Positions 1,537 through 58,494 of a stretch of 64,000 nt of DNA are shown in pieces. Below the pieces are notes generated by a model, which worked only from the letters and a program-made list of their open reading frames with translations, did no database searches and was not told the DNA's origin. Source of the DNA: Minisyncoccota bacterium (GTDB taxonomy: Bacteria; Patescibacteriota; Minisyncoccia; UBA6257; XYB1-36-10); contig JBAZJH010000002.1 of the NCBI GenBank assembly GCA_041651415.1, forward strand, positions 111,075 through 175,074. Direction: 5' to 3'. Numbering within the stretch: the stretch's first letter is position 1; each line of letters begins with the position of its first letter. The translations under genes and the position numbers were made by a program.

Positions 1537-2012
1537 TTTGTTTCACGTGAAACAAATAAATTATATTATCAATAAGATAATAATGTATTTCTTCGACAAA
1601 CTCAGAAAGTAAGTCGAGTGTTTGACGTGAAACATTGTTTTTTATGATTGTTTATTTATGCGGTTTTTTATAAATAGTGTTTTACGTGAAACACTATTTT
1701 TATTTTTTAGGCAGTTTTAATGTTTAACGTGAAACATTGTAATTGCCTGTTTTGACGTTTCACGTGAAACAATTTTTTAGAATTGGCTTATTTATGAGAA
1801 TATCCGGTTAAAAATTAAAGAGAAGACAAAATTTAAATATTTTTAGTGTTTTACGTGAAACATTAAAAAGGAGAGAAAGAAGGTTTTTGAGGTGTTTTAA
1901 TTGTTTCACGTGAAACAATATTATAGATATCCTTTATTTATGCGGATATCGGGTTTCTTTTTTGAGTGATATAATGATTTTAAGATAGTTTTAATGTTTG
2001 ACGTGAAACATT
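1537..2012. repeat. parS: array of 8 parS (ParB/Spo0J-binding centromere) sites, each matching TGTTNNACGTGAAACA
   Basis: Eight 16-20 bp palindromes at about 1537-1556, 1617-1637, 1675-1696, 1721-1740, 1757-1776, 1844-1867, 1900-1919 and 1993-2012. Two are the perfect consensus TGTTTCACGTGAAACA; the rest differ only at position 6. Irregular 33-93 bp spacing. Confidence 0.7.
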
Positions 2013-2015
2013 GCA

Positions 2016-2414
2016 ATGGCTAAACATATAGAAATAGGACGAAAAGGAGAAGAAATCGCTTGTGGATATCTTTTAAAAAAAGGGTATAAGTTGGTAGAAA
2101 GAAATTATCGAGAAAAATATGGAGAAATTGATATTATCGCTATAAATAAGGCTAAAATCTTAGTTTTTGTTGAGGTTAAAACATTAAAAATAGCGAATAT
2201 TGCCGAAGTGGATAATTCGGCAAAATTGGGGATAACTCCGGAAGATAACCTAACGGGAGTAAAATTGGCTAAAGTTAGGAGAACTGCTGAATTCTATGCC
2301 AATAGCCATCCGGAATTTATAAAAGAGGGAAAAGGATGGCAAATAGATCTTCTAGCGATTTTTTCAGAGGAAGAAGGCAGATATTTAATAAGGCATTATG
2401 AGAATGCGTCATAA
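2016..2414 (+). CDS. YraN family (UPF0102) putative endonuclease
   Basis: 132-aa protein with the YraN pattern ...GEEIACGYLLKKGYKLVERNY...GEIDIIA...VFVEVK. Confidence 0.65.
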   Translation: MAKHIEIGRKGEEIACGYLLKKGYKLVERNYREKYGEIDIIAINKAKILVFVEVKTLKIANIAEVDNSAKLGITPEDNLTGVKLAKVRRTAEFYANSHPEFIKEGKGWQIDLLAIFSEEEGRYLIRHYENAS

Positions 2415-9611: not shown

Positions 9612-10976
9612 ATGGATCTCGAAAAGATTTGGGAAACAGTTTTGGCAGAAATGGAAATAAATATTTCTCACGCTAATTTTCATACTTGGCTAAAAAACAG
9701 CAAATTAATCAATAAAGACGAATCAGGAAACTTCGTGGTAGCTTTGCCAACTAATTTTTCCAAAGAGTGGGTGGAAAATAAATATCAAAAGAATATTTTA
9801 CATATTTTGAGAGATTTAGACAGCCAGGCCAAAAAAATAGATTTTGTGGTACAGGGAAATATATTTAATTCAAACCAAAATCAGAAAACTTCAAAGGGAA
9901 GTTTCAGCCCAATTCCAGCACAAATGGCTTTTCCAGAGTTTAAAGTGGACCCGGAAACAAATCTAAATCCAAAATACACTTTTCAAAATTTTATAGTCGG
10001 TTCATCAAATGAACTGGCTTTTGCCGCAGCGCAGGCAATAGTCAAAGAAGTGGGGTCAAAATATAATCCATTGTTTTTTTACGGGGGAGTGGGTTTGGGA
10101 AAAACCCATTTAATTCAAGCAATCGGCAATGAAATAATAAAAGATTATAAAAACAGTCTGAAAGTAAGATATGTGACTTCAGAAAAATTTACCAATGACG
10201 TGGTTTGGGCAATAAAAAACAAGAGAATGGAGGATATAAAGAAAAAATACAGAGATATAGACATTTTAATAATAGACGATATCCAGTTTATAAGCGGAAA
10301 AGAAAAAACACAGGAAGAATTTTTTCATACCTTTAATTCTTTATACGCTTTAAATAAACAAATAATCATATCTTCAGACAGACCACCGCATGCTTTACCA
10401 ACACTTCATGAAAGATTAAGGTCAAGGTTTGAAGGAGGAATGACGGTTGATATAATTCAACCCGATTATGAGATGAGAGTGGCGATAATAAGCACAAAAT
10501 TACAAGAGTGCAAACATGAATTACCCAATAAAATAATAGGGATAATAGCCGGAAAAGTAAGTGAAAATATAAGAGAAATAGAAGGTTTATTAAATAAACT
10601 TATTTTTATAAAGGAAAATAAAGGGGTAGAAATAGATGAAGGGATAATAAACGAGGTAATAAATAAAAATACGCAAGTAAATAAAAATATAAACCCGAAT
10701 AAAATAATAAAAGCAGTGGCAGATTTTTTTGAAATTTCCATAAATGAATTAATAGGAAAATCAAGAAAAAAAGAGATTGTGGAACCGAGACAAATAACAA
10801 TGTTTTTACTTCGAAACATATTAAACACATCTTTTCCTTTTATTGGGGATAAGATGGGGAAGAGAGACCACACAACTGTGATGCATGCCTGTGAAAAAAT
10901 AAACAAAGAAATGGAAAAAAATATCAATACCAGCCAGAAAGTTAATTTAATAAAAGAGTCGATATATAAAAGTTAA
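9612..10976 (+). CDS. dnaA: chromosomal replication initiator protein DnaA
   Basis: Walker A GGVGLGKTHL, AAA+ core and a C-terminal DNA-binding domain; followed by dnaN. Confidence 0.95.
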   Translation: MDLEKIWETVLAEMEINISHANFHTWLKNSKLINKDESGNFVVALPTNFSKEWVENKYQKNILHILRDLDSQAKKIDFVVQGNIFNSNQNQKTSKGSFSPIPAQMAFPEFKVDPETNLNPKYTFQNFIVGSSNELAFAAAQAIVKEVGSKYNPLFFYGGVGLGKTHLIQAIGNEIIKDYKNSLKVRYVTSEKFTNDVVWAIKNKRMEDIKKKYRDIDILIIDDIQFISGKEKTQEEFFHTFNSLYALNKQIIISSDRPPHALPTLHERLRSRFEGGMTVDIIQPDYEMRVAIISTKLQECKHELPNKIIGIIAGKVSENIREIEGLLNKLIFIKENKGVEIDEGIINEVINKNTQVNKNINPNKIIKAVADFFEISINELIGKSRKKEIVEPRQITMFLLRNILNTSFPFIGDKMGKRDHTTVMHACEKINKEMEKNINTSQKVNLIKESIYKS

Positions 10977-11132: not shown

Positions 11133-12242
11133 ATGAAAGTAATAGTAATAAGAGGAAATTTAAAGAAAGCTCTTGATTCAGTAGTAAGAGTGACAGGAGA
11201 AAATTCTAATTTACCTATTTTAAAAAATATTTTAATAAAGACTTCCGGAAGCGGATTGATTTTTTCTTCAACTAATTTAGAAATAGCCTTATCTTATAAA
11301 TTATCGGGAAAAGTGATTGAAAACGGCGAAATAACAGTGCCGGCGGCGATTTTTTCTTCAATAATAAATAATTTAAACAATGAAGTTATTAATTTAGATA
11401 TAATAGAAAAAAATAATTTAAGAATAAAAACCGATAATTACGAAGCGACGGTCAATACTTTACCCACAGAAGATTTTCCGATAATTCCGAGTATTTCCAA
11501 AGAAAATAACAGTTTTAAAATAGATGCCGAAAAAATAAAAGGATTTTTAGAACAAGTTTTAAGTTCCACGCAATTTTCAGATTTAAGGCCGGAAATAAAC
11601 GGAATTCTGTTTAATTTTGATGGGAATGTTTTAAAACTGGCTGGAACAGACAGTTTTAGACTTTCAGAAAAAACCATAACAAGCTCAGATTTTAATTCAG
11701 ATATAAAAGAGGGTTTTAAAGCAATTATTCCATTAAAAGCAATAATTGAGTTTTTAAAGGTTTTTCAAGAAGGAATAGTAGAATTTTATTTTGATAATAA
11801 CCAAGTTTTGTTTAAAAATGAGGAAGTAGAGATGGTTTCAAGATTGATAGACGGCGATTTTCCGGACTATGAACAAATTCTTCCAAAATCGGCCGAAATA
11901 GAAGCAGTGGCGGATAAAGAAGAAATGATAAACGCTTTAAAAGTGACAGGAATATTATCGGGAAAAGTTCATGATGTTTTGATAAAAATTAAAAAAGACA
12001 ATAAATATATAGAAATTTTTTCTTTAAATCAGGGAATTGGAGAAAATAAATATATAATTCCGGCAAAAATAAAAGGGGAGGATTTGGAAATTAATTTTAA
12101 TTGGCAATATTTGCTTAGCGGAATAAAATCTTTCAAGGGAGAAAAAATAATATTGGGATTTAACGGGAGCGACCGACCGACAATAATAAAATCAATAGAA
12201 GATGAAATGTATTTTTATATTTTAATGCCGGTAAAGAATTAG
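11133..12242 (+). CDS. dnaN: DNA polymerase III beta sliding clamp
   Basis: 369 aa, three-domain clamp-like sequence, immediately after dnaA. Confidence 0.9.
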   Translation: MKVIVIRGNLKKALDSVVRVTGENSNLPILKNILIKTSGSGLIFSSTNLEIALSYKLSGKVIENGEITVPAAIFSSIINNLNNEVINLDIIEKNNLRIKTDNYEATVNTLPTEDFPIIPSISKENNSFKIDAEKIKGFLEQVLSSTQFSDLRPEINGILFNFDGNVLKLAGTDSFRLSEKTITSSDFNSDIKEGFKAIIPLKAIIEFLKVFQEGIVEFYFDNNQVLFKNEEVEMVSRLIDGDFPDYEQILPKSAEIEAVADKEEMINALKVTGILSGKVHDVLIKIKKDNKYIEIFSLNQGIGENKYIIPAKIKGEDLEINFNWQYLLSGIKSFKGEKIILGFNGSDRPTIIKSIEDEMYFYILMPVKN

Positions 12243-15263: not shown

Positions 15264-15800
15264 TTAAAAATTGACGTTAGTATAAACGTTTTCAACATCG
15301 TCATGGTCTTCAAGAGAAGAAATTATTGTTTTAAGCTTTTCTAAATTTTCAGAACTTATAGATTGAGGAAATTTTGAAGACCAAGTTTTGGTTTCTATGT
15401 TTTGTTCGAAAGCCCAAAGAACGCTGCCAGGGCTGGCAAATTTAGCATCAAGTTTAGTTAAAATAGTTTTTATTTCAGAAATAGTCCGATTTTTATTGTC
15501 AGTGATGGCGGTAATTAAAAGAGCGGAACCTTCTGGGCCATAGGCTTCAAGAACAACATCTTCAAGATTATTTCCGGCTTCTTTAACTTTTTTTATAGCG
15601 CGTTCAATATTGTCCAGAGGAACATTAGAGGCGCGAGCTTTTTCCACGACGGCGCGAAGACGGGGATTAAAATCGGGATTCGGCTCGTCTTTAGCGGCAA
15701 TAGTTACGGCTTTTAAAAGTTTGCCAAAAAGAGCGCCTTTCTTTTTATTATCGCCTTCTTTTTTTCTGGCGACGTTTTTTGCGTGGGAATGACCGGACAT
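15264..15800 (-). CDS. YebC/PmpR family DNA-binding regulator (short form)
   Basis: N-terminal MSGHSHAKNVARKK...GKLLKAVTIAAK resembles YebC; yebC-ruvC linkage is conserved. Confidence 0.7.
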   Translation of the reverse strand: MSGHSHAKNVARKKEGDNKKKGALFGKLLKAVTIAAKDEPNPDFNPRLRAVVEKARASNVPLDNIERAIKKVKEAGNNLEDVVLEAYGPEGSALLITAITDNKNRTISEIKTILTKLDAKFASPGSVLWAFEQNIETKTWSSKFPQSISSENLEKLKTIISSLEDHDDVENVYTNVNF

Positions 15801-15897
15801 ATAAAATTTAAATGAGAAATAACTAATTTTTAATGACTAAAAATCGTTTATGAGAAGATTTTAGCTTAAAATTTTAAAAATTCCAAGTTTTAAAAAA

Positions 15898-16025
15898 TGA
15901 AACTCCACGGCTTTACGGCCGTAGAATCTTAAAGTTTCACCCCGCCTACGACGGGGTTTTATTAAATCTTTATCATTTCAACTCCCGCGCTAATGCACGG
16001 GGTTTTCGTGGAGATTTAATAAAAA
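15898..16025 (+). repeat. copy A of a ~125-bp structured intergenic repeat (MITE/REP-like family, 5 copies in the window)
   Basis: AAACTCCACGGCyTTACGGCCGTAGAATCTTAAAGTTTCACCCCGCCTACGACGGGGTTTTATTAAATCTT ... GAGATTTAATAAAA; two GC hairpins plus an 11-bp inverted pair TTATTAAATCT/AGATTTAATAA. Confidence 0.7.
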
Positions 16026-16147
16026 AAAATTTTGACTGGTTTGTAAAAAAGATTTTTTGCCAGTTTTTTATTGACTTTGAGTTTTGAAAGAGAGATACTG
16101 TTTAGGAAAAGTTAATAAAAAGGATAAATTATTCATAAAAATCCAAG

Positions 16148-17833
16148 ATGCTCAACAATTCCACATATGTTAAGCAGAAGTTAGTCCGCTTTAATTCGGA
16201 AGCGGAGGAGCGAGACGCGGAAAGAAGGGCAGTAAGACAAAAAAAACAGCATCTTGATTTAGTAACGACACCAATTGAAATAGACGCCCTTAGTTTAATA
16301 CCAGAAGAAAGAGCAAAAGAGCTCGAGATGGCCGCCATAAATCTAATTAACCAGGATTTAATTGTGGCGGCTTTTGATTTTGAGAGGGAAGGCATTAAAG
16401 AAGAAATAAAAAAACTGGAAGAACGAGGATTTAAAATAAGGCCGGTCATAGTTTCGAAAGCAAGCTTGAGGCATGCTTTCAGTTTTTACCGCTTTGTTTC
16501 AAAAAAACAGGAAGAAATAACGGGGAGAGTTTTAATCTCCGGAGAAAAAATAAAAAAATTTGAAAAGGAACTCGGAACAATTCAGCTTATAAAGAAAGAA
16601 ATAGAATCGATAAATTTCAATAAAGTCACAGTTTCCGATTTTTTGGAGCTTGTTTTGGGAGGGGCGCTTTCAATCGAAGCTTCCGACATTCATTTTGAAC
16701 CGATAAGAGAAGCGGGGGTTTTAAGATATAGAATAGACGGAGTTTTGAATGAAATAACAGAAGGAGTGGAAAGAAACTTTTATAAAAAAATTGTTTCGAG
16801 AATAAAATTATTAGCGGGATTAAAAATGAACGTGACGGATGAAACGCAGGACGGAAGATTCACTATTTCCTTAGAAGGCAAAGACGTGGAAGTGAGAGTA
16901 GCGATAGCGCCGGCGGAGTTTGGAGAAGTGGCGGTTTTAAGAGTGCTTGACCCGAAAGCAATAAGTTTAGGGTTGGCGGAATTGGGATTTTTTGAAAGCG
17001 ATTTAAAAATAATAAAGGAAGAGTTAAAACGGCCAAACGGAATGATTTTAAACACCGGGCCGACCGGAAGCGGAAAAACAACAACGCTTTACGCTTTTTT
17101 AAAAGAGAAAGCGACAAAGGAAATAAAGGTGATAACAATTGAAGACCCGATTGAATATCATTTAGCCGGAATAGAACAGACGCAAGTGAATGAAGAGGCG
17201 GGATACACTTTTGCCGAAGGATTAAAATCGGCATTGCGGCAAGACCCGGACGTGATATTGGTCGGCGAGGTAAGAGATGAGGACACGGCGAGGACGGCAG
17301 TTGATTCGGCTCTGACCGGGCATTTGGTTTTTTCAACTTTACACACTAATGATTCGGCGGGGGCGATACCAAGACTGATTGATTTGGGAGTCAAAGAAAA
17401 CATAATCGGGTCGGCTTTAAATCTAGTGATCGCGCAAAGATTAGTGAGAAGAATTTGTTCAAATTGCAAAATAGCGGAAAAAGCCGGTTTGGAATTTCAG
17501 GAAAAAGCAAAAAAGTTTTTAGAGAAACTGCCGGAGAGAGCCGGAAAGGAAAATTTTTTAAAAGATTTGAAAGCATATAAAGCAAAAGAAGGCGGATGCG
17601 AAAAATGCAACGGAACCGGATATAAAGGGAGAGTGGGGCTTTATGAGCTTTTTCAAGTAAATGACGAAGTGCAGGAAGCGATTGAAAAGAAAAACTCGGT
17701 TTTAGAAATAAAAGAAATGGCCAGAAAACAAGGAATGATAACGATGCAAGAAGACGGAGTGTTGAAGGCGCTACTTGGAATCACGAGTTTGGAAGAGGTG
17801 GAAGCAGCGACTGGAGTGATAGAAGAACTTTAA
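16148..17833 (+). CDS. pilB: type IV pilus / type II secretion assembly ATPase (PilB/GspE family)
   Basis: Walker A GPTGSGKTTT, Asp box ILVGEVRDEDTA, His box, and a C-terminal tetracysteine motif (CxxC...CxxC). Confidence 0.85.
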   Translation: MLNNSTYVKQKLVRFNSEAEERDAERRAVRQKKQHLDLVTTPIEIDALSLIPEERAKELEMAAINLINQDLIVAAFDFEREGIKEEIKKLEERGFKIRPVIVSKASLRHAFSFYRFVSKKQEEITGRVLISGEKIKKFEKELGTIQLIKKEIESINFNKVTVSDFLELVLGGALSIEASDIHFEPIREAGVLRYRIDGVLNEITEGVERNFYKKIVSRIKLLAGLKMNVTDETQDGRFTISLEGKDVEVRVAIAPAEFGEVAVLRVLDPKAISLGLAELGFFESDLKIIKEELKRPNGMILNTGPTGSGKTTTLYAFLKEKATKEIKVITIEDPIEYHLAGIEQTQVNEEAGYTFAEGLKSALRQDPDVILVGEVRDEDTARTAVDSALTGHLVFSTLHTNDSAGAIPRLIDLGVKENIIGSALNLVIAQRLVRRICSNCKIAEKAGLEFQEKAKKFLEKLPERAGKENFLKDLKAYKAKEGGCEKCNGTGYKGRVGLYELFQVNDEVQEAIEKKNSVLEIKEMARKQGMITMQEDGVLKALLGITSLEEVEAATGVIEEL

Positions 17834-23984: not shown

Positions 23985-24046
23985 TTTCTAATTACTAATA
24001 TCTGATTAATGACTAATTAAAAAATTTTAGTAAATTTTTAAGAATA

Positions 24047-24099
24047 AAAATAGCTTTGAAAAACAGGGCTAATCACCAATCGTTTTTCAAAGCTATTTT
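24047..24099 (+). terminator. terminator hairpin with conserved loop CAGGGCTAATCACCAATCG (family X)
   Basis: agctttgaaaaa-[loop]-tttttcaaagct followed by ATTTTT; the same loop sequence recurs at 27491, 42784 and 42905. Confidence 0.5.
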
Positions 24100-24313
24100 T
24101 ATTCTATAAATTATTCAGTAGAGAGAGGGATGGTGGTAATAATGCCCCGATGGAATACGGGGTAAATATTTTACTTCGTAAAAAATTATTTTTTAAATAA
24201 TTTTAATTGTGGAGATTTTTTATTTTTAAGGAGAAAAAATAGAAAAATAAGGGAGCTGTCTTCCGCTCTCCGCCAGTTGGCGGAGCGGATTTAATGGCAA
24301 CTTTGATTTTGTT

Positions 24314-27456: not shown

Positions 27457-27490
27457 AATAAATTATTTTTTTAAAAACGGAGTAAATAAG

Positions 27491-27548
27491 AAAAAAACAG
27501 CTTCAGAAAACAGGGCTAGTCGCCATCATTTTCTGAAGCTGTTTTTTT
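27491..27548 (+). terminator. terminator hairpin, family X (loop CAGGGCTAGTCGCCATCA)
   Basis: cagcttcagaaaa-[loop]-ttttctgaagctg followed by TTTTTTT, directly after polA. Confidence 0.5.
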
Positions 27549-27652
27549 CTTTAATTTTAAAAGGGTGGTAGAAGGTGATAATAAGCCCCGCCTATAAAAG
27601 GCGGGGTAAAGTAGTTCTGACGTAAGGTCGGAGCTTTTTATCTTTTTAAATA

Positions 27653-27681
27653 TTGACAGGTTTGGGAAATTTGTGTAGATT
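27653..27681 (+). promoter_or_regulatory. conserved promoter TTGACA-17-TAGATT (copy 1 of a duplicated promoter + leader module)
   Basis: Near-identical ~125-bp promoter + leader also at 43060-43187; partial copies at 31596-31649 and 60985-61040. Confidence 0.55.
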
Positions 27682-27778
27682 TGGCTTAGAATCAGGTTAG
27701 TTAAAAAATGAAATCCGCCTATGGCGAGATAAAGTCCGCCTAAGCTAAAAACTACGGCGAGACAAAAGGAGAAGAAAA

Positions 27779-27991
27779 ATGGAAACAAATCAGGTTTGTG
27801 AATTGAGAGATTTAGATTTGGTAAAAAAATTGGTTAGCACAATTGAGACATATGAGAGAAATTGGGAATACATGACAAAAGAAGATAGGGAGAAACAAAA
27901 AAAAGAACAAGAGGTTTTAGAAGGGGAGATTTTGAAGAGGCTAGGGGAAAGACAAGTGTTTAAAGAGATTGTTGCGACTACTATTTCTTAA
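27779..27991 (+). CDS. hypothetical 70-aa protein, paralog of the 43186 ORF
   Basis: Shares LxDLxxLxxxLVKKL and EILKRLGE-like segments with the 43186 product; same conserved leader upstream; terminator at ~27995-28040. Confidence 0.5.
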   Translation: METNQVCELRDLDLVKKLVSTIETYERNWEYMTKEDREKQKKEQEVLEGEILKRLGERQVFKEIVATTIS

Positions 27992-31649: not shown

Positions 31650-32138
31650 ATGAACAGAGAAAAAATACTTGAAGGAGCCAAAGAATTTTTTTTTGAGGGG
31701 ATGTTGGCGAGATATTTCGGTCACCGAGATGGAAAAAAAATAACAAAGATAGAATCATCCGATGGTTGTAATGATATTGTGTTTAGAGATGGAGATTTTA
31801 AAGTGGTTGACCGGTTTTACATAACTCCGGATTCCGATTTTTCAGCGGGGACAACGACGATTTTCTTTGAGAACAAGCCGGTGTGGTGGATGGCTTATGG
31901 GGGATGTTATCCTGCTGAAGCCATTGCTTTTTTAAAAATGGCTTTAAAGGAGAATTATGAGAGAGGTACTTTTTTAGGGGGGAGAGGGCCAAAGTTAGTG
32001 GAAGAAGAAAATTTTGTTTATCGGAATGAAGTCAGAATGTCAGATTTCAAAATTTTTAATGGGCGGGAAAGTATTGTGGATTTAGAAGCTGAAAAGGAAT
32101 TGGGTTTTCATGAATATTTTGGCATGGCTTTAATATAG
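31650..32138 (+). CDS. hypothetical protein (162 aa) carrying a partial copy of the conserved leader
   Basis: Upstream ...AAGTCCGCTTACGCTAAAACTATGGCGAGAAAAAGGAGAAAGAAATG matches the leader family. Confidence 0.5.
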   Translation: MNREKILEGAKEFFFEGMLARYFGHRDGKKITKIESSDGCNDIVFRDGDFKVVDRFYITPDSDFSAGTTTIFFENKPVWWMAYGGCYPAEAIAFLKMALKENYERGTFLGGRGPKLVEEENFVYRNEVRMSDFKIFNGRESIVDLEAEKELGFHEYFGMALI

Positions 32139-32188
32139 CCAAACCAAAAGCAAAGAACTCTAAAGCCTGGAAATTTTTCCGGGCTTTT

Positions 32189-32314
32189 TTATTAAATCTC
32201 CGCTTCAAACTTCGCGCGCTATCTTAAGGGGTTTGAAGCGGTAAAGATTTAATAAACCCACGCCTAGGGCGGGGTGAAACTTGAAGAAACCACGGCCGTA
32301 AGGCCGTGGAGTTT
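32189..32314 (-). repeat. copy B of the ~125-bp MITE/REP-like repeat (inverted orientation), abutting the ileS stop codon
   Basis: Reverse complement matches AAACTCCACGGCCTTACGGCCGTGG...CACCCCGCCCTAGGCGTGGGTTTATTAAATCTTT...GAGATTTAATAAA. Confidence 0.7.
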
Positions 32315-35300
32315 TATTTTAGAGAAACAGAGATTTCGCCGAAGTTTTCAAAAGGGGAGGTTTTATTGATTCTTTGAGTATTAGCTTTTGAATAAAAGAT
32401 TTTTTTAAGGGAGCAGGCGGAACAGATTTCTTTTTCTTTGGCAGAAAAAATAGAGGAAAGATTTTCGGGAGCGGATTCAATATAAAGATTAACAAGCTCA
32501 CCAGGCTTTAAGTCGGCTTCACCGCGGAGAGATTGAATAAGGCGGATGAATTCACGAACGAGGCCTTCGGATTTCAATTCGGGAGTGATATTCAAATCAA
32601 GCCAAACTTCTTTTTTGTCAGGAAGATTATTTTCGAAAGATACTTTTTTAACGTTGACTTCGTCTTTTAGAATTTCGAGAAGATTGGCGGATATTTTTTC
32701 CGCTGATTTTATTTTCATTTCAGAAAGAGGCTGACGGACTTTGATGCCTAAAGCAGAGCGTTCGGCAAGGCCGAGGCTGGACCAATCTTTTACAAGAGTC
32801 ATTTCTTTTAAAAGCTTTTCGTTAAATTTTTCAGCTTTTGGCCAAGAAGAAAGATGAACGGAATTTTTGAAACCGGATTCTTTTTTAAGGGAATTAAGGG
32901 AGAGATAAAGATAGTCGGAAAAGAAAGGCGCAAAAGGAGCCATAATTTTACTTAGGGCGAGGAGAGAATTATAAAGGGCAAAAGAAGCGTCAAGGCGGTC
33001 CCGACCGAAACGTCGGGACAAATTGCCTGAAGCGATTTGAAACCTTGAGCGGGAACGGCGGATAAACCAGCGGGAGATATCGCTTAAAAGTTCTTCAATT
33101 TTTCTGCCAGCCGGAGGAATGTCATATTTTTCAATAAGTTCTTCCGTTTCTTTTATGGTTTTAGAGACGCGGGAAGTGAGCCATAAATCCAGAGGATTAG
33201 TGAATTTTTTTACTGACCCAGAAAGAGAGCCGTAAGTTTTCAAATAAAGAAGGCAATTTTTGACGATATTAAAAACATTAAGCGAGACTTTTTTTAGGTC
33301 GTCCTCGTTAAAATTTTTAGTTTCACCAGCGTCGTTTAAAGTGAAAAGATACCAGCGGACAGAATCGGCGCCGTATTTATCAAACATTTCCCAAGGGTCG
33401 ACGATATTGCCGCGGGACTTGGACATTTTTTTGCCGTTTTTGTCGTTGATCAAGCCAAGAGAAATGACGTTTTTATAAGGAGCGCCTTTTTCAAGAAGGG
33501 TGGAGATGGCAAGAAGAGTGTAGAACCAGCCGCGGGTTTGATCCATAGCTTCCGAAATATAGTCGGCAGGGAAAATTTTTTTCTTATCAATCAGGTCCTT
33601 ATTTTTGAAAGGATAACCAGAGGCGGCAAAAGGCATAGCGCCGGAATCAAACCAGACGTCGACAAGTTCCGGAATTCTTTTCATTTTTTCGCCGCAAGAA
33701 CAAGGAATTTTGATTTCATCGATAAAAGGGCGGTGCGGGTCAAGAAATCCGTCGTCGTTTAAAGGAATATTTTTAAAAGGCAGAGGTTTCCATTCGGCAT
33801 TTTTCAGAAAAAAATCTTTAACTTTAAGATTGTTTCCGCTTAAAGATTCCGCGAGAACGCGAAGAGGGTCTTCGTGCCCGACGATGAGAATATTTTTGCC
33901 GTCATATTTTTTGTCGATTTCTTTCAGAGCTTTCATTATTCTTTTTCTGACTTGATTCAGATTTTCTCCGTTTGCCGGGGACTGCTCGTATTTTTCTTTA
34001 AAAGAAGAAAAAAGCTTTTTGTAAGAAGAAGCGGATTTTTCATTTAATTCTCCAAAATCGGTTTCGCGAAGACGTCTGTCAAAAATTAAAGTTTTTATTT
34101 TCAGGGATTTTTTGATAATTTCGGCGGTTTCTTTGGCTCTTTTTAAGTCAGAAGAAAAAATAATATCGATATTCAACTTCTTTAATTTTTCGGCGGATTT
34201 TTCAACTTGAAGACGGCCTTTTTTAGTAAGAGAATTGGCTGTTTTTTCAGGCCAAGAGGAATTGAATTTGTTTTTATTAGAAAGAGCTTCGCCGTGGCGG
34301 ATGGCAAAAAAAGAGTTTTTTGAAGGAAGGGGAGAATCGGCGAGCTCTTTTAAAGAGCTGATTATTTTTTCTTGTCCGCATTTATGGCATTGCCAGATGG
34401 GAAGAGGTGTGCCCCAATATCTTTCTCTTGAGAGCGCCCAATCTTTGATGTCTTTCAGCCATTCGCCAAAACGGCCTTCTTTGATGTGAAAAGGAATCCA
34501 GTTGATTTTTTCGTTATTTTTTAAGAGAGCGTCTTTTAAAGAAGACATTTTAATAAACCAAGAGGAGCGGGCGAAATAAATGACCGGAGTGTCGCAGCGC
34601 CAGCAGAAAGGATAGTCGTGCTCGTAAAGATTTTCCGACAAAAAGAAATTATTTTTTTTCAAATAAGCAATTATTTTTTCTTCGGTTTCTTTTGATTTAA
34701 CGAAAAGGCCGGACAGTTCCGGAACAAAATCTTTAAAGTGACCGGACTCGTCGACGGTATGAACTTCGGGGAGACCGACTTCTTGGCCGAGGCGATAATC
34801 ATCTTCGCCATACATAACGGCGGTGTGGACGACGCCGGTGCCGTCAGTCGTTGTGACAAAATCGGCGGGATAAACCTGATAAGATTTTTCTGATTGCAAT
34901 TCTTTTATTTTGAAAAGAGGTTCGTATTTTAAGCCAACCAAGTCGGCGCCGGAAAATTCTCTAATTTTTTCTCCAGTAAAAATATTTTTATCAGAAAGAG
35001 GAGAAGCAATAAAGGCTTCTTCGCCATCAACAGACTTTAAAAGCGAATACTTTATTTTTTTTCCGACAGCTAAGGCGACGTTTCCGGGAAGAGTCCAAGG
35101 AGTGGTGGTCCAAGATAAAATAAAAGTTTTATTGCCGATTCTAAAGTCGCCGATTTTTTGGCCGGGAAGGAGCTTAAACTTCAAAAAAACAGAATTGTCT
35201 TTAACGATTTTATAACCTTGGGCAAGTTCGTGGCTGGAAAGACCGGTGCCGCAGCGAGGGCACCAGGGAATTATTTTGTGTCCTTGATAGAGAAGATTTT

Positions 35301-35823
35301 TTTTATAAATTTCCGAAAGAAGCCACCAAACGCTTTCAATATATTCTGGCTTGTAGGTGATATAAGGATTTTCAGTATCAAGCCAAAAACCCATTCTGCT
35401 TGTGAGATTTTCCCAGAGTTCTTTATATTGCCAAACGGAAGCGCGGCATTTTTCGTTGAATTTTTTTATGCTTTCCGTTTTATCTTTCGGAACCAGATTT
35501 TCAATCTCTTTTTTGCTTTTCAAACCGAGTTCTTTTTCAACCTGGAGTTCAACCGGAAGGCCGTGTGTGTCCCAGCCGGCTCGGCGGGGAACATTGAATC
35601 CGCGCATATTTTTGTAGCGGCAAATGATGTCTTTATAAGAACGGGCTAAGACATGATGAAGACCGGGTTTGCCATTTGCGGTCGGGGGACCTTCGTAAAA
35701 AACGAAGGTTTTGTTTTTGGCGTTTTGTTTAAGGGATTTTTCAAAGATTTTTTCTCTTTCCCATTTAGCGAGGATTTCTTTTTCAAGTTCGGGCAGGCTT
35801 TTATTTTTTTTTTCTTCCGACAT
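32314..35823 (-). CDS. ileS: isoleucyl-tRNA synthetase (type 2) with a ~170-aa histidine-phosphatase (PGAM-like) domain inserted at about aa 500-670
   Basis: HIGH-type PGLHHV, KMSKS, CP1 editing domain, zinc-knuckle halves WQCHKCG ... IPCSCGEKM. Between them: AIRHGEALSN (RHG motif), RETDFGEL, ILIVGHEDPL - a histidine phosphatase superfamily fold. Confidence 0.9.
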   Translation of the reverse strand: MSEEKKNKSLPELEKEILAKWEREKIFEKSLKQNAKNKTFVFYEGPPTANGKPGLHHVLARSYKDIICRYKNMRGFNVPRRAGWDTHGLPVELQVEKELGLKSKKEIENLVPKDKTESIKKFNEKCRASVWQYKELWENLTSRMGFWLDTENPYITYKPEYIESVWWLLSEIYKKNLLYQGHKIIPWCPRCGTGLSSHELAQGYKIVKDNSVFLKFKLLPGQKIGDFRIGNKTFILSWTTTPWTLPGNVALAVGKKIKYSLLKSVDGEEAFIASPLSDKNIFTGEKIREFSGADLVGLKYEPLFKIKELQSEKSYQVYPADFVTTTDGTGVVHTAVMYGEDDYRLGQEVGLPEVHTVDESGHFKDFVPELSGLFVKSKETEEKIIAYLKKNNFFLSENLYEHDYPFCWRCDTPVIYFARSSWFIKMSSLKDALLKNNEKINWIPFHIKEGRFGEWLKDIKDWALSRERYWGTPLPIWQCHKCGQEKIISSLKELADSPLPSKNSFFAIRHGEALSNKNKFNSSWPEKTANSLTKKGRLQVEKSAEKLKKLNIDIIFSSDLKRAKETAEIIKKSLKIKTLIFDRRLRETDFGELNEKSASSYKKLFSSFKEKYEQSPANGENLNQVRKRIMKALKEIDKKYDGKNILIVGHEDPLRVLAESLSGNNLKVKDFFLKNAEWKPLPFKNIPLNDDGFLDPHRPFIDEIKIPCSCGEKMKRIPELVDVWFDSGAMPFAASGYPFKNKDLIDKKKIFPADYISEAMDQTRGWFYTLLAISTLLEKGAPYKNVISLGLINDKNGKKMSKSRGNIVDPWEMFDKYGADSVRWYLFTLNDAGETKNFNEDDLKKVSLNVFNIVKNCLLYLKTYGSLSGSVKKFTNPLDLWLTSRVSKTIKETEELIEKYDIPPAGRKIEELLSDISRWFIRRSRSRFQIASGNLSRRFGRDRLDASFALYNSLLALSKIMAPFAPFFSDYLYLSLNSLKKESGFKNSVHLSSWPKAEKFNEKLLKEMTLVKDWSSLGLAERSALGIKVRQPLSEMKIKSAEKISANLLEILKDEVNVKKVSFENNLPDKKEVWLDLNITPELKSEGLVREFIRLIQSLRGEADLKPGELVNLYIESAPENLSSIFSAKEKEICSACSLKKIFYSKANTQRINKTSPFENFGEISVSLK

Positions 35824-35937
35824 GGTGGCTTTATTCTATTATAAACAAAGGGTTTTGTTAAGATTGACGAGTTTAAATAAAAAGAGTATAAAACAAGCAG
35901 AAGTTTGAGAATAAAAAATGAAAGGGAGAAAGAAAAA

Positions 35938-36117
35938 ATGTTTTCACAATCTAACTGGAAATGGAAGTGCAAAGAATGCGGGCACGAGTTTTATGGATTG
36001 ACGGAAAAAGAAGTACCAATAAAATATAATTGTCCAAAATGTGGGAGTAAAGAAGTAGAGAGTAAAGGGCCGATAGTTCACGACATGCCGTTAGAAAATC
36101 CTCATATAAAATACTGA
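35938..36117 (+). CDS. small zinc-ribbon protein (CxxC...CxxC), hypothetical
   Basis: KCKECGHEF...NCPKCGSKE; likely start at the MFSQSNW Met inside the track ORF 35905..36117. Confidence 0.45.
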   Translation: MFSQSNWKWKCKECGHEFYGLTEKEVPIKYNCPKCGSKEVESKGPIVHDMPLENPHIKY

Positions 36118-36302
36118 AAGGAGAAAGAAGAAAGGTTTTATTCTTTATGTTTTTGTTGTTCTAGGATTTTTTTTCTTTGTATCTTTTGTTTTGGGTGTTG
36201 TTTTCAAAATTATCTTAATTATCTTATTTCATGAGAAATGGCCGGAAATTTTTATTTATGAATTTCCGATATTGATATTCGCGGTTTCGAGAGGGGCCGC
36301 TT

Positions 36303-36420
36303 TTTTATTAAATCTCTGCGAAATCCCCGCGCTAACGCGCGGGGATAAAGCGATAAAGATTTAATAAACCCCACCTTTGGCGAGGTGAAGCTTCACGGCT
36401 TTATGGCCGTGGAGCTTCAT
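36303..36420 (-). repeat. copy C of the ~125-bp MITE/REP-like repeat (inverted orientation)
   Basis: Reverse complement: ...GCTCCACGGCCATAAAGCCGTGAAGCTTCACCTCGCCAAAGGTGGGGTTTATTAAATCTTTATCGC...GAGATTTAATAAAAAA. Confidence 0.65.
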
Positions 36421-36454
36421 TTGTGAAAACAGCCGATTTTGCTATATTTTAGGT

Positions 36455-36904
36455 ATGGCATTAGCAGAAAACAGAAAGGCGAGGTTTGATTATGAGATTT
36501 TAGACGAATTTGAAGCGGGAATAGAGCTTTTAGGAGGGGAAGTAAAATCAGCGAGAGAGGGAAGGATGAACTTGACCGGAGCGTACGCGATAATAAGGGG
36601 AGGGGAGATTTACCTTGTCGGAGCGGATATTCCTTTGTATCAGCCAAAAAACGCCTTAGAAGGTTATGACCCGCAAAGAACGAGACGGCTGCTTTTGCAT
36701 AAAAAAGAGATAGAAAGATTGGCGCAAAACGTGGAAGAGAGAGGGTTGACACTTGTGCCATTAAAAGTGTATGATAAATCCGGAAAAGTTAAGATTCTAC
36801 TTGGACTTTCCAGAAGAAAAAAGAAGCAGGATAAGAGAGAAAAGATAAAGAAAGAGGAAGTAAAGAAAGAAATGAAAAGAATATTGAAAAGAATTCGGGA
36901 ATAA
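36455..36904 (+). CDS. smpB: SsrA-binding protein SmpB
   Basis: ENRKARFDYEILDEFEAGIELLGGEVKS... canonical SmpB. Confidence 0.9.
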   Translation: MALAENRKARFDYEILDEFEAGIELLGGEVKSAREGRMNLTGAYAIIRGGEIYLVGADIPLYQPKNALEGYDPQRTRRLLLHKKEIERLAQNVEERGLTLVPLKVYDKSGKVKILLGLSRRKKKQDKREKIKKEEVKKEMKRILKRIRE

Positions 36905-36941
36905 ACCGAATATCCAGTTAAAAAGATTTAACCGGAAAAAT

Positions 36942-37319
36942 GGGGATGTAAGGAATCGACGATTTAAGGACGGTAGAAATGGCAGGCAGGATTGAAGATC
37001 CTCAAAATCTTCAAAAAAGAAAAGTGCCAACTTTAATAGGCAGCCAGCTTTTGCTTTTGCTTAAGCTTGGAAGCCGTCTTTTATAGGCGGCCGCTCACTC
37101 TTTCTTTTTGCCTGAAGAGGTAAGAGGAGCGAAAAAAAATTCAGGCTTTTCCGACTCTTTTCTCGGTTTTATGGGAAGGAGAAAAAATAAAAGCCGAACA
37201 AACAGAATTTTCTGACGCGCTTCAAGTTTTGTTTGTAAAAAAAAGAGCGCGCCTAAGCCATGTAGAAATTTTTATCAGTCGTAAATCGGACATGGGTTCA
37301 AATCCCATCATCTCCACCA
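36942..37319 (+). ncRNA. ssrA: tmRNA (SsrA); predicted tag reading frame ...ANFNRQPAFAFA*
   Basis: 5' GGGGATGTAAGGAATCGACG and 3' tRNA-like end GGACATGGGTTCAAATCCCATCATCTCCACCA; internal ORF gcc aac ttt aat agg cag cca gct ttt gct ttt gct taa; directly downstream of smpB. Confidence 0.8.
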
Positions 37320-37366
37320 GGGAAAAGTTTAAATTTTATAAAGTTAGAAAATAAAAAAACAAAAAA

Positions 37367-37903
37367 TTGCAAAATAGAAATTTTAGAGGAGGATTCTTTC
37401 GAAGGGGGCCTTTAGCAAATGAAGAAATAAAAGCGGAAGAGCTAAGAGTTATTGGCGACCAAGGAGAAAATCTGGGCGTGATGAAAAAGGAGGAGGCGAT
37501 CAATTTGGCGAAGGAAAGGGGGCTAGACTTAGTTTTAGTGAGCGGAGAAACAAGCCCGCAGATTGCCAAAATCATAAGTTTTGACAAATATCGCTATCAA
37601 CTGGAAAAAAGCGAGAAGGAAAAAAGAAAAAAAATGAAAACTTCGGAGCTTCGGGGAATAAGGATAACACCACGGGCGGCCAAAAATGATTTAGAGGTAA
37701 AAATGAAGAAGGTAGTTGAATTTTTAGAAAAAGGTGATAAAGTAGAAATCCAGCTTTTTATGAGGGGGAGAGAAAAAGGAAATAAGGATTTTGCCCGAGG
37801 AAAGCTAGAAGAGTTCTTAAAAATGGTGCCGGTGGAGCATAAGATAACCGCTCCGATAAAGTTTGCCGGCAGAGGGTTTAATGTGCAAATTTCAAAGAAA
37901 TAA
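37367..37903 (+). CDS. infC: translation initiation factor IF-3 (start codon uncertain; IF-3 often uses a non-ATG start)
   Basis: EELRVIGDQGENLGVMKKEEAINLAKERGLDLVLVS... ; infC-rpmI-rplT operon order. Confidence 0.85.
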   Translation: MQNRNFRGGFFRRGPLANEEIKAEELRVIGDQGENLGVMKKEEAINLAKERGLDLVLVSGETSPQIAKIISFDKYRYQLEKSEKEKRKKMKTSELRGIRITPRAAKNDLEVKMKKVVEFLEKGDKVEIQLFMRGREKGNKDFARGKLEEFLKMVPVEHKITAPIKFAGRGFNVQISKK

Positions 37904-37907
37904 CAAA

Positions 37908-38084
37908 ATGAAAAAAACATTCAAAAGCAGAGTAAAAACAACAAAGACAGGGAAAGTTTTAAGAAGAATGATGGGAGCATCTCATTTTCGGTCGAAAAAG
38001 TCTTCAAAATATAAGCAGTCAAGAAGAAAAACGGTAGGCCTGGGATATTTGATGAAGGCGATACAAAAAAGAGTAAAAAGATAA
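37908..38084 (+). CDS. rpmI: 50S ribosomal protein L35
   Basis: MKKTFKSRVKTTKTGKVLRRMMGASHFRSKK... basic ~58-aa L35; internal Met of track ORF 37863..38084. Confidence 0.85.
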   Translation: MKKTFKSRVKTTKTGKVLRRMMGASHFRSKKSSKYKQSRRKTVGLGYLMKAIQKRVKR

Positions 38085-38093
38085 AATAAAAAT

Positions 38094-38438
38094 ATGCCAA
38101 GAGTAAAAAGAGGAACAACAGCCAATAAAAAAAGAAAGAGCGTATTAAAGCTCACGAAAGGTTTTAAATGGGACAGAAAGTCAAAAGAAAGAGCGGCGAA
38201 AGAAGCGTTATTGCACGCTTTGTCGAGGTCTTTCAGAGGACGAAAAGAAAAGAAAGGAGATTTTAGGAGATTGTGGCAGGTGAAAGTGAGCGCGGCGGCA
38301 AGAGAAAATGGAATGAGCTACAGTGTTTTCATAAAAAAACTGAAAAACGCCAATATAGTTTTGAACAGAAAGATGCTGGCGGAATTAGCGGAAAAGCATC
38401 CGGAGGCGTTTAAAAAAATTATAGAGGAAGTGAAATAA
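38094..38438 (+). CDS. rplT: 50S ribosomal protein L20
   Basis: MPRVKRGTTANKKRKSVLKLTKGFKWDRK... canonical L20. Confidence 0.9.
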   Translation: MPRVKRGTTANKKRKSVLKLTKGFKWDRKSKERAAKEALLHALSRSFRGRKEKKGDFRRLWQVKVSAAARENGMSYSVFIKKLKNANIVLNRKMLAELAEKHPEAFKKIIEEVK

Positions 38439-38440
38439 AA

Positions 38441-38478
38441 AAAAGAACTGCCCGGAAGGGCAGTTTTGGTTTAATTAA
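38441..38478 (+). terminator. intrinsic terminator after rplT
   Basis: gaactgcccggaagggcagtt followed by TTGGTTT. Confidence 0.55.
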
Positions 38479-38517
38479 ATAATTTTCAACTAATCTGCTA
38501 TCTGCAGAATTGAAAAA

Positions 38518-41922: not shown

Positions 41923-42111
41923 AAGGATATTATATAATGGCTGGTTAAGAATTTCTAATTTGTATAAAAGAAGGTAATAATTAGCATTTTTGAATTATTA
42001 AAGCCAACTGGCAGTCTTTCAAAAAACCGCGAATCGCGAAAATTTTTCAAGACTGCCAGTTGGCTTGACTTATATTTTAGAGAGTGGGGGTGGGAGAGAA
42101 GGAAGGAAGGA

Positions 42112-42753: not shown

Positions 42754-42783
42754 AAGGGACTTTATTAAGAGAACGGGTTGTAA

Positions 42784-42977: not shown

Positions 42978-43059
42978 TAGTAAAAACTTTTTTAGAGGGG
43001 GAGGAGGTGATAATAATGTAACTCCGACCTTGCGTCGGAGTTTCTCATCTTTTTAGAAG

Positions 43060-45244: not shown

Positions 45245-45269
45245 GAAAATAAAAAAAGAACTTGCTTAA

Positions 45270-54104: not shown

Positions 54105-54713
54105 ATGAATATGCGGTTTTTTGATTTTCCGAACAAAATTAAATTTCCGGCTTTGTTTATTGCCATAATTCTTTTGGCTTATTTGTTTTGGAGAATAGTT
54201 TTAGTCGGAGGGTCTTTTGTGCCAAAGGAATTTTTAGAAGCAAATCAGCAAGGAGCTTTAATAGCCACTCAAATAGTGGATTTTTCAAAAAAATCGGTTA
54301 GCAATATTGATAAAATCAATGATTTAGACAGAGAGGAAAATTATTCCGAGGCGCTCAATCTGATTATGGAAGAAATAAGCAGAAACGAAGAGATGAAAAA
54401 AGAAGCTTATAATCTTTCGTTTGAATTGGCTAAAATGGCGGAAACTTTAAAAGAAATAAAACCGAAAGTGGCAACGGAAACAGCTTTGCGAGGAATAAAT
54501 TATGAAACTTCTTTAATAATCCGGTTGATAAACTACAACGCTTTTATGGGAAATCTATTAATAACTTTGAGAGATAAATTTACGGGGAAGATGGTGGAGG
54601 AAGGAAAAGTGGGAGAGATAATCAAAAAAATAAACGACGAGGCGACGGCGATAAATGATTTAAACGAACAGTATAAGGCGGCGATGAATGAGTTTGATGA
54701 GAAAATAAAATGA
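54105..54713 (+). CDS. hypothetical membrane-anchored protein (202 aa)
   Basis: N-terminal TM helix; coiled C-terminal region. Confidence 0.45.
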   Translation: MNMRFFDFPNKIKFPALFIAIILLAYLFWRIVLVGGSFVPKEFLEANQQGALIATQIVDFSKKSVSNIDKINDLDREENYSEALNLIMEEISRNEEMKKEAYNLSFELAKMAETLKEIKPKVATETALRGINYETSLIIRLINYNAFMGNLLITLRDKFTGKMVEEGKVGEIIKKINDEATAINDLNEQYKAAMNEFDEKIK

Positions 54714-54838
54714 AACTTCACGGCCTTAAGGCCGTAGAATCTTAAAGTTTCACCCCGACCAAAGTCGGGTTTTATTAAATCTTTACCGCGAAAACTTCTA
54801 AACTGACATGCGGGGTTTGAAGCTGAGATTTAATAAAA
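54712..54838 (+). repeat. copy D of the ~125-bp MITE/REP-like repeat, followed by a CTCCGA-type terminator (54841-54868)
   Basis: GAAACTTCACGGCCTTAAGGCCGTAGAATCTTAAAGTTTCACCCCGACCAAAGTCGGGTTTTATTAAATCTTTACCGCG...GAGATTTAATAAAAG. Confidence 0.7.
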
Positions 54839-54871
54839 GATCCTCCGATACAATCGGAGGATCTTTTATGT

Positions 54872-57883: not shown

Positions 57884-58072
57884 ATGAAAAACAGAATAAA
57901 GGAACTCAGAGTAAAAAGAGGAATGACGCAGGAGGAGTTGGCGGAAATGGCGGGAGTGAGGAGAGAGACGATTGTTTTTTTAGAGCAGGGGAAATATAAT
58001 CCGTCGCTTAATTTGGCGCATAGCGTGGCAAAAATCTTAAAAACCAAAATAGAAGATTTGTTTTTGTTTTAA
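57884..58072 (+). CDS. XRE-family helix-turn-helix transcriptional regulator (62 aa)
   Basis: [52 protein letters not shown] is a canonical Cro/C1-type HTH. Confidence 0.75.
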
Positions 58073-58076
58073 AAAA

Positions 58077-58204
58077 TAAAACTCTACGGCCGTTAGGCCG
58101 TAGAATCTTAAAGTTTCACCCCGCCTACGACGGGGTTTTATTAAATCTTAGCCGTGAAAATTCCTAAGTTGACATACGGGGTTTTCTCGGAGATTTAACA
58201 AAAA
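58077..58204 (+). repeat. copy E of the ~125-bp MITE/REP-like repeat, lying between convergent genes
   Basis: AAACTCTACGGCCGTTAGGCCGTAGAATCTTAAAGTTTCACCCCGCCTACGACGGGGTTTTATTAAATCTTAGCCG...GGAGATTTAACAAAAAA. Confidence 0.7.
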
Positions 58205-58236
58205 AGCCCGAGGGAGTCGGGCTAAGAGAGGGGAGA

Positions 58237-58494
58237 TTAAAGTTTTTCTAGGATGTCTTTTAAAAGGTCTTTGTCGCGAAGAGCGAGTTTTTTTGAAGAT
58301 CCAAGCCATTCTTCCGGAGTTATCTCATTAGTTTCCGGGATTGATTCATCGAAAGAAACTAAAGGATCAGTTTCTATCTTGACTGGCAGGTTAAGAGAGG
58401 AGAATAGATTATTCGGGTCGATACCGTGAATTTCCTCAAAGTGTTCAAAAAAGTCTTCATCTGTATAGGGTTTTCCTTTGTAAACGTCGGGCAT
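58237..58494 (-). CDS. small acidic protein (85 aa), second of a tandem paralog pair
   Basis: RBS AAAGGAGAG; shares the N-terminal pattern MP...P(W/Y)(M/T)DE.F...DP.N with the upstream ORF. Confidence 0.45.
   Translation of the reverse strand: MPDVYKGKPYTDEDFFEHFEEIHGIDPNNLFSSLNLPVKIETDPLVSFDESIPETNEITPEEWLGSSKKLALRDKDLLKDILEKL

Follow-up and report, generated by a model that had tools for sequence, protein, structure and literature searches.

Structured intergenic repeats in a Candidatus Paceibacterota genome as probable miniature derivatives of an IS200-group insertion sequence

The window analysed here, i.e. the whole 64-kb stretch of DNA, carries near-identical structured repeats of ~125 bp at gene ends and between genes, which raises the question of what these repeats are and what sets their positions and orientations. 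The initial annotation described them as MITE- or REP-like and considered roles in termination or RNA stability. Our results reveal a real and fairly recent mobile element of a known kind, namely a small, gene-less relative of the IS200/IS605 insertion sequences. We put at roughly 85% the probability that the repeats are non-autonomous (PATE/MITE-like) derivatives of an IS200-group IS200/IS605 element in a Candidatus Paceibacterota (CPR) host, mobilised in trans by TnpA via single-strand 'peel-and-paste' transposition.

Copies and fold of the repeat family

A covariance model built from the five annotated loci returned exactly five full copies in the 64-kb window (Table 1), 114-127 bp long and scoring 116-154 bits; the remaining matches in the window were reverse-strand or hairpin ghosts of at most 34 bits. 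The five loci are real, with refined boundaries differing by 1-4 nt from those first given, and have a mean column identity of 73% (MAFFT). We give the strand of each copy as that of the transposon top strand (the tnpA sense in the parent IS), which is the reverse complement of the orientation used initially. The GC content is ~37%. The GC hairpin attributed to each copy, ACGGSC-N4-GSCCGT, was found five times against 0.07 expected; TTATTAAATCT at up to one mismatch occurs 17 times against 7.7 expected, with all nine exact matches inside the five copies. Comparison of the fold of each copy with shuffles gave z values from -4.8 to -9.9. The coding capacity of the mini-elements is nil, their only overlap with ORFs being the terminal stop codons of neighbouring genes; a 114-aa ORF beside copy C (36417..36761, minus strand) was rejected as spurious, the real genes there, Zn-ribbon and smpB, both being on the plus strand.

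Table 1. Positions of the repeat copies, their insertion targets and other features discussed in the text (window coordinates unless a contig is named)
Feature	Coordinates	Strand	Description
Copy A	15897..16020	-	124 bp; between divergent yebC (15264..15800, -) and GspE/PulE ATPase gene (16148..17833, +)
Copy A, P1/right-end module	15897-15939	+	module read on the + strand
Copy A, P2 hairpin	15939-15957	+	module read on the + strand
Copy A, P3 hairpin	15958-16022	+	module read on the + strand
Copy B	32191..32317	+	127 bp; between convergent DUF5680 gene (31650..32138, +) and ileS (32314..35823, -)
Copy C	36307..36420	+	114 bp; between Zn-ribbon gene (~35938..36117, +) and smpB (36455..36904, +)
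Copy D	54710..54834	-	125 bp; left end abuts terminator of intron-containing tRNA gene (minus strand)
Copy E	58076..58199	-	124 bp; between HTH_3 49-aa gene (~57923..58072, +) and convergent 85-aa ORF (58237..58494, -)
Target of A	16021..16065 (approximate)	-	T9 after weak hairpin ACTGG..CCAGT, dG -4.0; least terminator-like of the five
Target of B	32165..32190	+	DUF5680 terminator hairpin GCCTGGAAATTTTTCCGGGC, dG -11.9, with T6; intact in L067 empty site
Target of C	36281..36306	+	hairpin GCGGTTTCGAGAGGGGCCGC after Zn-ribbon gene, dG -11.1, with T6; same hairpin with T5 in L067
Target of D	54835..54863 (approximate)	-	hairpin GATCCTCCGATTGTATCGGAGGATC, dG -17.2, with T4; directly after tRNA 3' end ...GCGGCACCA
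Target of E	58200..58223	-	terminator AGCCCGACTCCCTCGGGCT with T5-6 of the 85-aa gene
Rearrangement at copy B	L061 3536-3600 and 5790-5850; L008 13511-14068		near-identical strains differ
tRNA gene with group I intron	54866-55208 (intron 54926-55186)	-	intron Rfam RF00028, 109.8 bits; the terminator is the target of D
tmRNA	36942-37319	+	136.7 bits
~43-nt units	1704-2020		five spaced copies, each centred on palindrome GTTTCACGTGAAAC; upstream of ORF 2016..2414
Second repeat family	24033-24110, 27480-27550, 42777-42845, 42886-42975; also L035 3930-3990		long hairpin, then T-run
176-nt direct repeat	27607-27782 and 43014-43189; also L008 2635-2790		87% identical
Near-perfect palindrome	63063-63143; L067 5314-5372		27-nt arms, AAAAATCAGAATATGATTTTAAGAGAG ... 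reverse complement

Each copy comprises three hairpins. P1 is long, with an internal loop (lacking in copy C) and the tip CCACGGCC-N4-GGCCGTGG; P2, CACCCCGCC-loop-GGCGGGG, is the second hairpin of the initial annotation and is present in each copy; P3 varies in its distal part, above the base TTATTAAATCT/AGATTTAATAA. Along the top strand, the host terminator hairpin and its T-run are followed by the left-end module P3, i.e. AT-TAAATCTCCGCG-AAAA-(GC hairpin) with the closing strand AGATTTAAT, then by AAAA-(P2 hairpin), and finally by the right-end module, in which the P1 hairpin CCACGGCC-GTAA-GGCCGTGG precedes GAGTTTYAT and a T. In the tnpA orientation the mini-element starts with ATTAAATCT directly 3' of the T-run (GTTAAATCT in copy E) and ends ..GAGYTTYAT followed by T, the exceptions being L039, the right end of which is truncated, and L045 (..GGAGTTTCCTTAT). 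The two ends, ATTAAATCT.. and ..GAGTTTYAT, are not inverted repeats of each other, and the 11-bp inverted pair previously taken as terminal encloses only P3, being the base of one internal hairpin at one end. The variable segment does end in CGGGGTTT, as proposed, in copies A, D and E, but not in C (GGGGATT) or B (CGAAGTTT). Copies A and E are 92% identical over their first 75 nt, in agreement with the >90% over ~70 bp noted before, with only 55-74% identity in their 3' parts (the P3 halves).

Analysis of fold conservation, a check that had been suggested for these repeats, was carried out on a model-guided alignment of 10 copies. Helix cells are paired in 91% of cases, compared with 36-54% for slid partners, and nine pairs show compensatory changes, mostly in distal P3 and the P1 tips. 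Of the 13 pairs in the P3 base, 11 are invariant in the 10 copies; the distal P3 stem of B, D and E is strongly divergent in sequence with pairing kept. These properties, together with the terminator-like scores of P2+TTTTATT and of P1 plus the flanking T-run, favour an explanation in which the repeat is a functional RNA module that selection maintains at gene ends as a 3'-UTR stabiliser, a bidirectional terminator or a small RNA, the likeness to IS ends being incidental or an exaptation. The near invariance of P2 and the P3 base in two organisms points in the same direction, as does the location of B, D and E downstream of co-oriented genes. P2 and the P3 base are more conserved than is predicted for a decaying dead transposon, which counts against the transposon reading, as does the strong divergence of the distal P3 stem in B, D and E.

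Other aspects of the fold are less consistent with such a module. G.T and A.C helix cells are about equally frequent (23 and 17, respectively), so the pairing is not specific to one strand; we observe a strand symmetry that DNA palindromes or single-stranded DNA intermediates should show, in contrast to a one-strand RNA, and that is uninformative to slightly against an RNA-only interpretation. Rfam gave nothing at the gathering threshold and, at a permissive E-value on both strands, a best match of 20 bits against thresholds of 50-95.

Insertion at host terminators

Evidence of a different type comes from the flanks. At all 16 insertion sites compared (six independent IS and 10 mini-element sites) the left flank ends in a T-run, and the right flanks begin with T1-5. 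A hairpin of dG <= -8 kcal/mol precedes the T-run in 12/16 sites, compared with 13% of control T-runs (Mann-Whitney p = 7e-8; the controls being the 1100 T>=5 runs of the window). The IS and the mini-element share this target, i.e. the T-tract immediately behind an intrinsic terminator, with AT after it. Since the hairpin sequence differs at each of the 16 sites, the hairpins belong to the host, and since they also remain in empty sites (see below) the terminator is the target of insertion and not part of the element. What could be taken for an 'own terminator' after each copy is actually the host terminator, i.e. the insertion target on the other strand; a small RNA gene with its own -10-like TAAAAT promoter and own terminator was likewise rejected, TAAAAT being the complement of the target T-run and the element tip. 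Annotators should be aware that hairpins adjoining such repeats are host terminators. The terminator of copy D is that of a tRNA gene split by a group I intron (5' exon GCCGCGGTAGCTCAGTGGTAGAGCAGATGCC.., 3' exon end ..GGTTCGATTCCCTCTCGCGGCACCA), for which ARAGORN made no call at 54866-55208 (minus strand).

A copy takes its orientation from the strand carrying the targeted terminator, and copies consequently look co-oriented with the convergent neighbouring gene. The target terminator on the other strand thus fully accounts for the orientation and position that seemed to favour a selected RNA module, and two copies fit such a module poorly, C lying antisense between two plus-strand genes and A between divergent promoters. 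The terminator or RNA-stability role suggested initially may be a possible side effect; it is not needed to explain location or orientation. IS608 and ISDra2 are described as having a lagging-strand orientation bias, with the top strand on the lagging-strand template. In the window, the GC skew is positive throughout, which suggests a single replichore, and the copies (two plus, three minus) are without replication-strand bias, a weak observation given that n = 5 and that terminator strand constrains orientation. The genes dnaA (9612..10976) and dnaN (11133..12242) are located near a group of ~43-nt units (Table 1), with no sign change of the GC skew in the window.

Copies had been noted to abut the stop codons of ileS and of the 54105 ORF. 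The relationship is closer than that, as both stops lie inside the terminal ATRAAAC of the element and are supplied by it: the terminal ..TTTTAT of copy B provides the ileS stop (TAA, 32314-32316), and the right end of copy D provides the TGA stop of ORF 54105..54713. The ileS product, an isoleucyl-tRNA synthetase of 1169 aa, has a match to the histidine phosphatase domain PF00300 (His_Phos_1) between two tRNA-synt_1 segments, as is also the case in a relative, L067.

This relative (NCBI GCA_028709185.1) has an SmpB that is 91% identical to that of the window, keeps the gene order of the window between polA and secG with 84% nucleotide identity, and has no copy of the element anywhere in the locus. 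Its sequences at the positions of B and C equal those of the window minus exactly the element, leaving the terminator, T5-6, AT and T. The empty B site reads ..CCAGGCTTTTTT-AT-TTTAAAGAAAC.. (shorter excerpt GGCTTTTTT-AT-TTTAAAGAAAC) and the empty C site ..GAGCCGCTTTTT-AT-TTGTGAAAAC.. (shorter excerpt GCCGCTTTTT-AT-TTGTGAAAAC). The empty site has a single AT and the filled site has one at either end, such that the cleavage position is ambiguous by 2 nt; the junctions (slashes) are either TTTTTT/AT..TTTY/AT or TTTTTTAT/..TTTYAT/, neither of which requires a duplication. Hence the target-site duplication envisaged in the initial annotation was not observed at B or C beyond the ambiguous AT. Because the right tip of the element mimics the target, the TAA stop codon of ileS was recreated by insertion.

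The empty sites are direct evidence for precise insertion after the lineages of the window and L067 split. Together with copies found elsewhere, they bear out the recent mobility proposed from the similarity of A and E. When contigs of the same population with exactly matching proteins were searched, they yielded contig breaks at the repeats and no empty sites. Around copy C, the ~170 nt between the Zn-ribbon gene and the target terminator (36117-36280) are without counterpart in L067 and represent a separate insertion/deletion; the nearby tmRNA has an unusual ARAGORN tag, GRSLFLFA, for which the resume codon may be mis-set.

The lack of B and C in a close syntenic relative is a further point against an RNA module maintained by selection. 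Such a module is possible as an exaptation and is contradicted as the primary explanation; overall, we consider it improbable. The proposal of a MITE is correct in kind, the repeat being a structured, non-coding, recently mobile and non-autonomous transposon, but not in anatomy: a classical MITE (DDE-derived, with terminal inverted repeats and target-site duplications) was rejected, because the ends are not inverted repeats and the empty sites show no duplication other than the ambiguous AT.

The probable parent insertion sequence and the composite build of the repeat

The likely source of the mini-element became apparent from a variant contig, L008 (ENA ERZ27247363), which is 99.98% identical to window positions 32275-45823 (13.5 kb) and diverges inside copy B. 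Past the ileS stop codon, it has the same AAAACTCCACGGCCTTACGGCCGTGGTTTCTT (the P1 hairpin) as copy B; the remainder of copy B is then replaced by an oppositely oriented PF01797 gene for a 142-aa protein and by another hairpin, CCACGGGCTTACGCCCGTGG. A tnpA gene is thus present at the site of copy B in a near-identical population, the ileS junction being common to the IS and the mini-element. As judged by sequence comparison, the right end of the mini-element is homologous to that of the IS: P1 of copy B is identical to the IS right end of the variant contig, and its comparison with the right ends of the complete IS copies gave 91-97% identity over 36-44 nt (E ~1e-10), with 95-97% identity between the GC hairpin and the right-end hairpin of the IS. 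By our reading, a weaker resemblance appears to run ~20 nt further, into the 3' end of tnpA.

The 142-aa protein scores 112.6 bits with the IS200/IS605 TnpA model NF033573 (cutoff 55), and the annotated homologues come from Komeilibacteria, Paceibacterota and Patescibacteria. The initial statement that no flanking ORF encodes a transposase is correct for the window, in which tblastn with TnpA detected no tnpA and Pfam analysis of the flanking and large ORFs detected no transposase, TnpB or IscB; it does not extend to the 99.98%-identical variant contig. Complete copies of the IS, which is tnpA-only (IS200 type), and relatives of 74-77% identity occur with precise ends at several loci (L015, L016-25, L049-60), and the complete copies terminate in AGAAACCACGGCCGTAAGGCCGTGGAGTTTCAT. 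In the tnpA orientation the layout is (flank)-ATATGCCTTCAATACC..AAAA-CCACGGGCGTAAGCCCGTGG-tnpA-AGAAA-CCACGGCCGTAAGGCCGTGG-AGTTTCAT-(flank). On L015, which bears a 99%-identical tnpA, a bAvd/23S_rRNA_IVP-type protein is encoded right after the IS (2025-2384); bAvd is an accessory protein family of diversity-generating retroelements.

The left end of the IS folds like P3, with the terminus paired with an internal segment and enclosing AAAA and a GC hairpin; the left end of the mini-element likewise has AAAA and a GC hairpin (4-nt loop) within a terminus-pairing stem. The stem sequence of the mini-element (CCCCGCGC.. of distal P3, or CCCCGCC.. of P2) is, however, unlike the IS hairpin CCACGGGC. 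The likeness of the left ends is architectural, without a sequence match, and recognition by this particular TnpA is therefore only putative.

A Y1 (PF01797) protein encoded between two similar GC hairpins, and tandem dimers of the repeat reminiscent of BIME clusters, might also be taken to indicate a REP/BIME-type repeat that depends on a domesticated RAYT (TnpA-REP) transposase. We regard this as very unlikely, and the REP-like label is not upheld, because the protein scores only 25.6 bits with the RAYT model NF047646 (cutoff 80) while being well above the IS200 threshold, because the tnpA unit is present at several loci with precise ends, as is the behaviour of an IS, and because the repeats are modular and 125 nt long, compared with 20-40 nt for REPs. 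Least credible is a stand-alone omega-RNA-like guide scaffold at the right end of the transposon that a TnpB/IscB nuclease would use in trans, the guide being read from the flank after ..TTTYAT, of which the ~125-nt, multi-hairpin scaffold and the IS200/IS605-type right-end position are reminiscent, but against which stand the tnpA-only parent IS, the lack of a TnpB/IscB-like ORF among the window ORFs tested, the lack of an Rfam match on either strand and the host terminator immediately upstream in that orientation.

A pattern scan of 185,579 species-representative genomes gave seven single matches, all due to chance according to the covariance model, which implies that the source species is not among them, and two viral-contig scans gave only chance AT-rich matches. 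A metagenome scan gave 20 stretches, the real ones being only on four contigs of one JGI sample (Ga0265297), with copies 75-87% identical. The flanks of the Ga0265297 copies have no nucleotide or translated similarity to the window, implying that they come from another organism; copies outside the five window sites thus exist.

Both monomers and tandem dimers were seen, the second unit of a dimer keeping the P1 base (GAAACTC..GAGTTTC) without the CCACGGCC tip. L035 has a copy in which the part of P3 between the 11-bp arms is in inverted orientation. The ENA population variant L061 tracks the window as far as the P3 end of copy B and then enters the terminator of an L27 gene; its solo P3 is perfectly symmetric, without the TAA bulge, and ~2.2 kb beyond it there is a degenerate unit of P1 and P2 that lacks P3. 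The ENA sample has ileS connected to tnpA via P1, and DUF5680 is followed by the solo P3 and then the L27 gene; from the arrangement in L067, the DUF5680-ileS adjacency of the window is ancestral. The breakpoints between these near-identical strains coincide with module borders. Such breakpoints and the separable modules show that two modules make up the ~125-bp element, P1 together with P2 at the right end and the palindromic P3 at the left. The inversion in L035 and the occurrence of the modules apart from each other also argue against an RNA module. It is plausible that recombination between P3 arms was a component of the ENA rearrangement.

Proposed mechanism and comparison with known systems

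In the IS608/ISDra2 paradigm, TnpA binds subterminal hairpins on the top strand, a short guide immediately 5' of each hairpin foot pairs with the cleavage site and thereby allows its recognition, and a single-stranded circle is excised and inserted 3' of the target in single-stranded DNA. By analogy, a Y1 HUH transposase (TnpA, 142 aa), with its gene at another place in the genome or population, would excise the top strand of the mini-element as a single-stranded circle, which would then be pasted 3' of TTTT(AT) in single-stranded DNA. The AAAA just 5' of the left-end hairpin foot would act as a guide by pairing with the TTTT target. Such an AAAA is present 5' of the left hairpin in the IS and 5' of both distal P3 and P2 in the mini-element, either of which may be the left-end hairpin for TnpA. 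At the right end of the IS, GAAAC 5' of the hairpin is predicted to pair with GTTTC near the right tip, the mini-element counterpart being the P1 base (TGAAACT/AGTTTCA). The right tip (..TTTYAT) would mimic the target, such that insertion regenerates it and can preserve a neighbouring stop codon.

A more comprehensive interpretation, which we offer tentatively and think may well be wrong in part or whole, is that a CPR-specific IS200-type lineage and its miniatures home to the T-tracts of intrinsic terminators through pairing of the AAAA guide with TTTT; that the P3 palindrome acts as a structured linker bringing target and guide together; that regeneration of the target and stop codons by the right tip (..TTTYAT) makes insertions nearly neutral; and that recombination and inversion of the modules (P3; P2-P1) make them a main driver of rearrangements in streamlined ~1-Mb genomes. 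The ileS/L27 rearrangement that distinguishes near-identical strains would then be a case in point.

On the preferred reading, i.e. miniature derivatives of an IS200-group element, an anonymous 'structured repeat' becomes a mobile element for which the partner transposase, the target and the polarity of insertion are defined, and the very small CPR/Paceibacterota genomes are also hosts to active single-strand transposons and their miniatures. The repeats provide a natural example of terminator T-tract targeting in which both occupied and empty sites are available and one locus is polymorphic for IS and mini-element; this may be used in testing target choice by IS200-group TnpA proteins.

With respect to known systems, homing 3' of terminator hairpins, a 'safe harbour' that spares genes, is shared with bacterial class C group II introns, which insert just after intrinsic terminator stem-loops. 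Those introns are, however, retroelements with a ribozyme and reverse transcriptase, in contrast to the single-strand DNA transposition proposed here.

PATEs or MITE-like IS200/IS605 derivatives are described in Haloquadratum walsbyi (PMC3119063) and Halanaerobium (PMC7290912), and PATEs with omega-RNA-like ends in a further report (PMC10055086). Like PATEs, the present repeats are short and non-coding, have hairpin ends in place of classical terminal inverted repeats, are homologous at one end to an autonomous IS200/IS605 element, with presumed trans-mobilisation by a Y1 TnpA, and insert sequence-specifically without target duplication. They differ from PATEs in that sequence homology to the known partner IS is confined to the right end, in the additional conserved hairpin P2, in the long palindrome P3, which is invertible and found solo or in tandem units, and in having a CPR bacterium as host. 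Also unusual for a PATE-like element are the use of a host terminator as target, documented by filled as well as empty sites, the assembly from modules and the single site at which IS and mini-element alternate.

The parent resembles the tnpA-only IS200 of Salmonella and other Enterobacteriaceae with respect to the TnpA (~140-150 aa, with HUH and Tyr motifs), the element length (~0.7 kb), the subterminal hairpins and the association of a terminator hairpin with the left end. In Salmonella IS200, a bidirectional rho-independent terminator is located at nt 12-34, within its own left end (PMC4513863), whereas the terminator here is outside the element, differs at 16 sites and stays in empty sites; terminator-like sequences are reported to be over-represented just upstream of IS200/IS605 elements (PMC13548323). 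As with REP/BIME elements and their RAYT (TnpA-REP) proteins (PMC3333891, PMC8266576), the repeats are intergenic, GC-rich palindromes akin to IS200/IS605 end hairpins, sometimes clustered and linked to a Y1 HUH enzyme, but the enzyme is IS200-type and the repeats are longer and composite, with precise insertion polymorphism.

Other repeated structures were observed in the window (Table 1). A second repeat family forms a long hairpin, the stem of which varies by copy, with the conserved loop ACAGGGCTA(A/G)TC(A/G)CCA followed by a T-run; in another organism one copy adjoins a mini-element, and the stretches 27470-27763 and 42753-43519, which hold second-family repeats, are absent or diverged in L067. 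Within a 176-nt direct repeat are a promoter-like pair, TTGACA...TAGAAT, and a structured leader (..GAAATCCGCCYATGGCGAGATAAAGTCCGCCTAAGC..); the repeat lies directly upstream of two different ORF starts (ATG 27781 and 43186) and is preceded by an GGTGATAATAA motif that recurs at 63154, 24132 and 50923. Finally, the near-perfect palindrome at 63063-63143 is 91.5% identical to a non-syntenic sequence of L067 and is possibly a small mobile palindrome.
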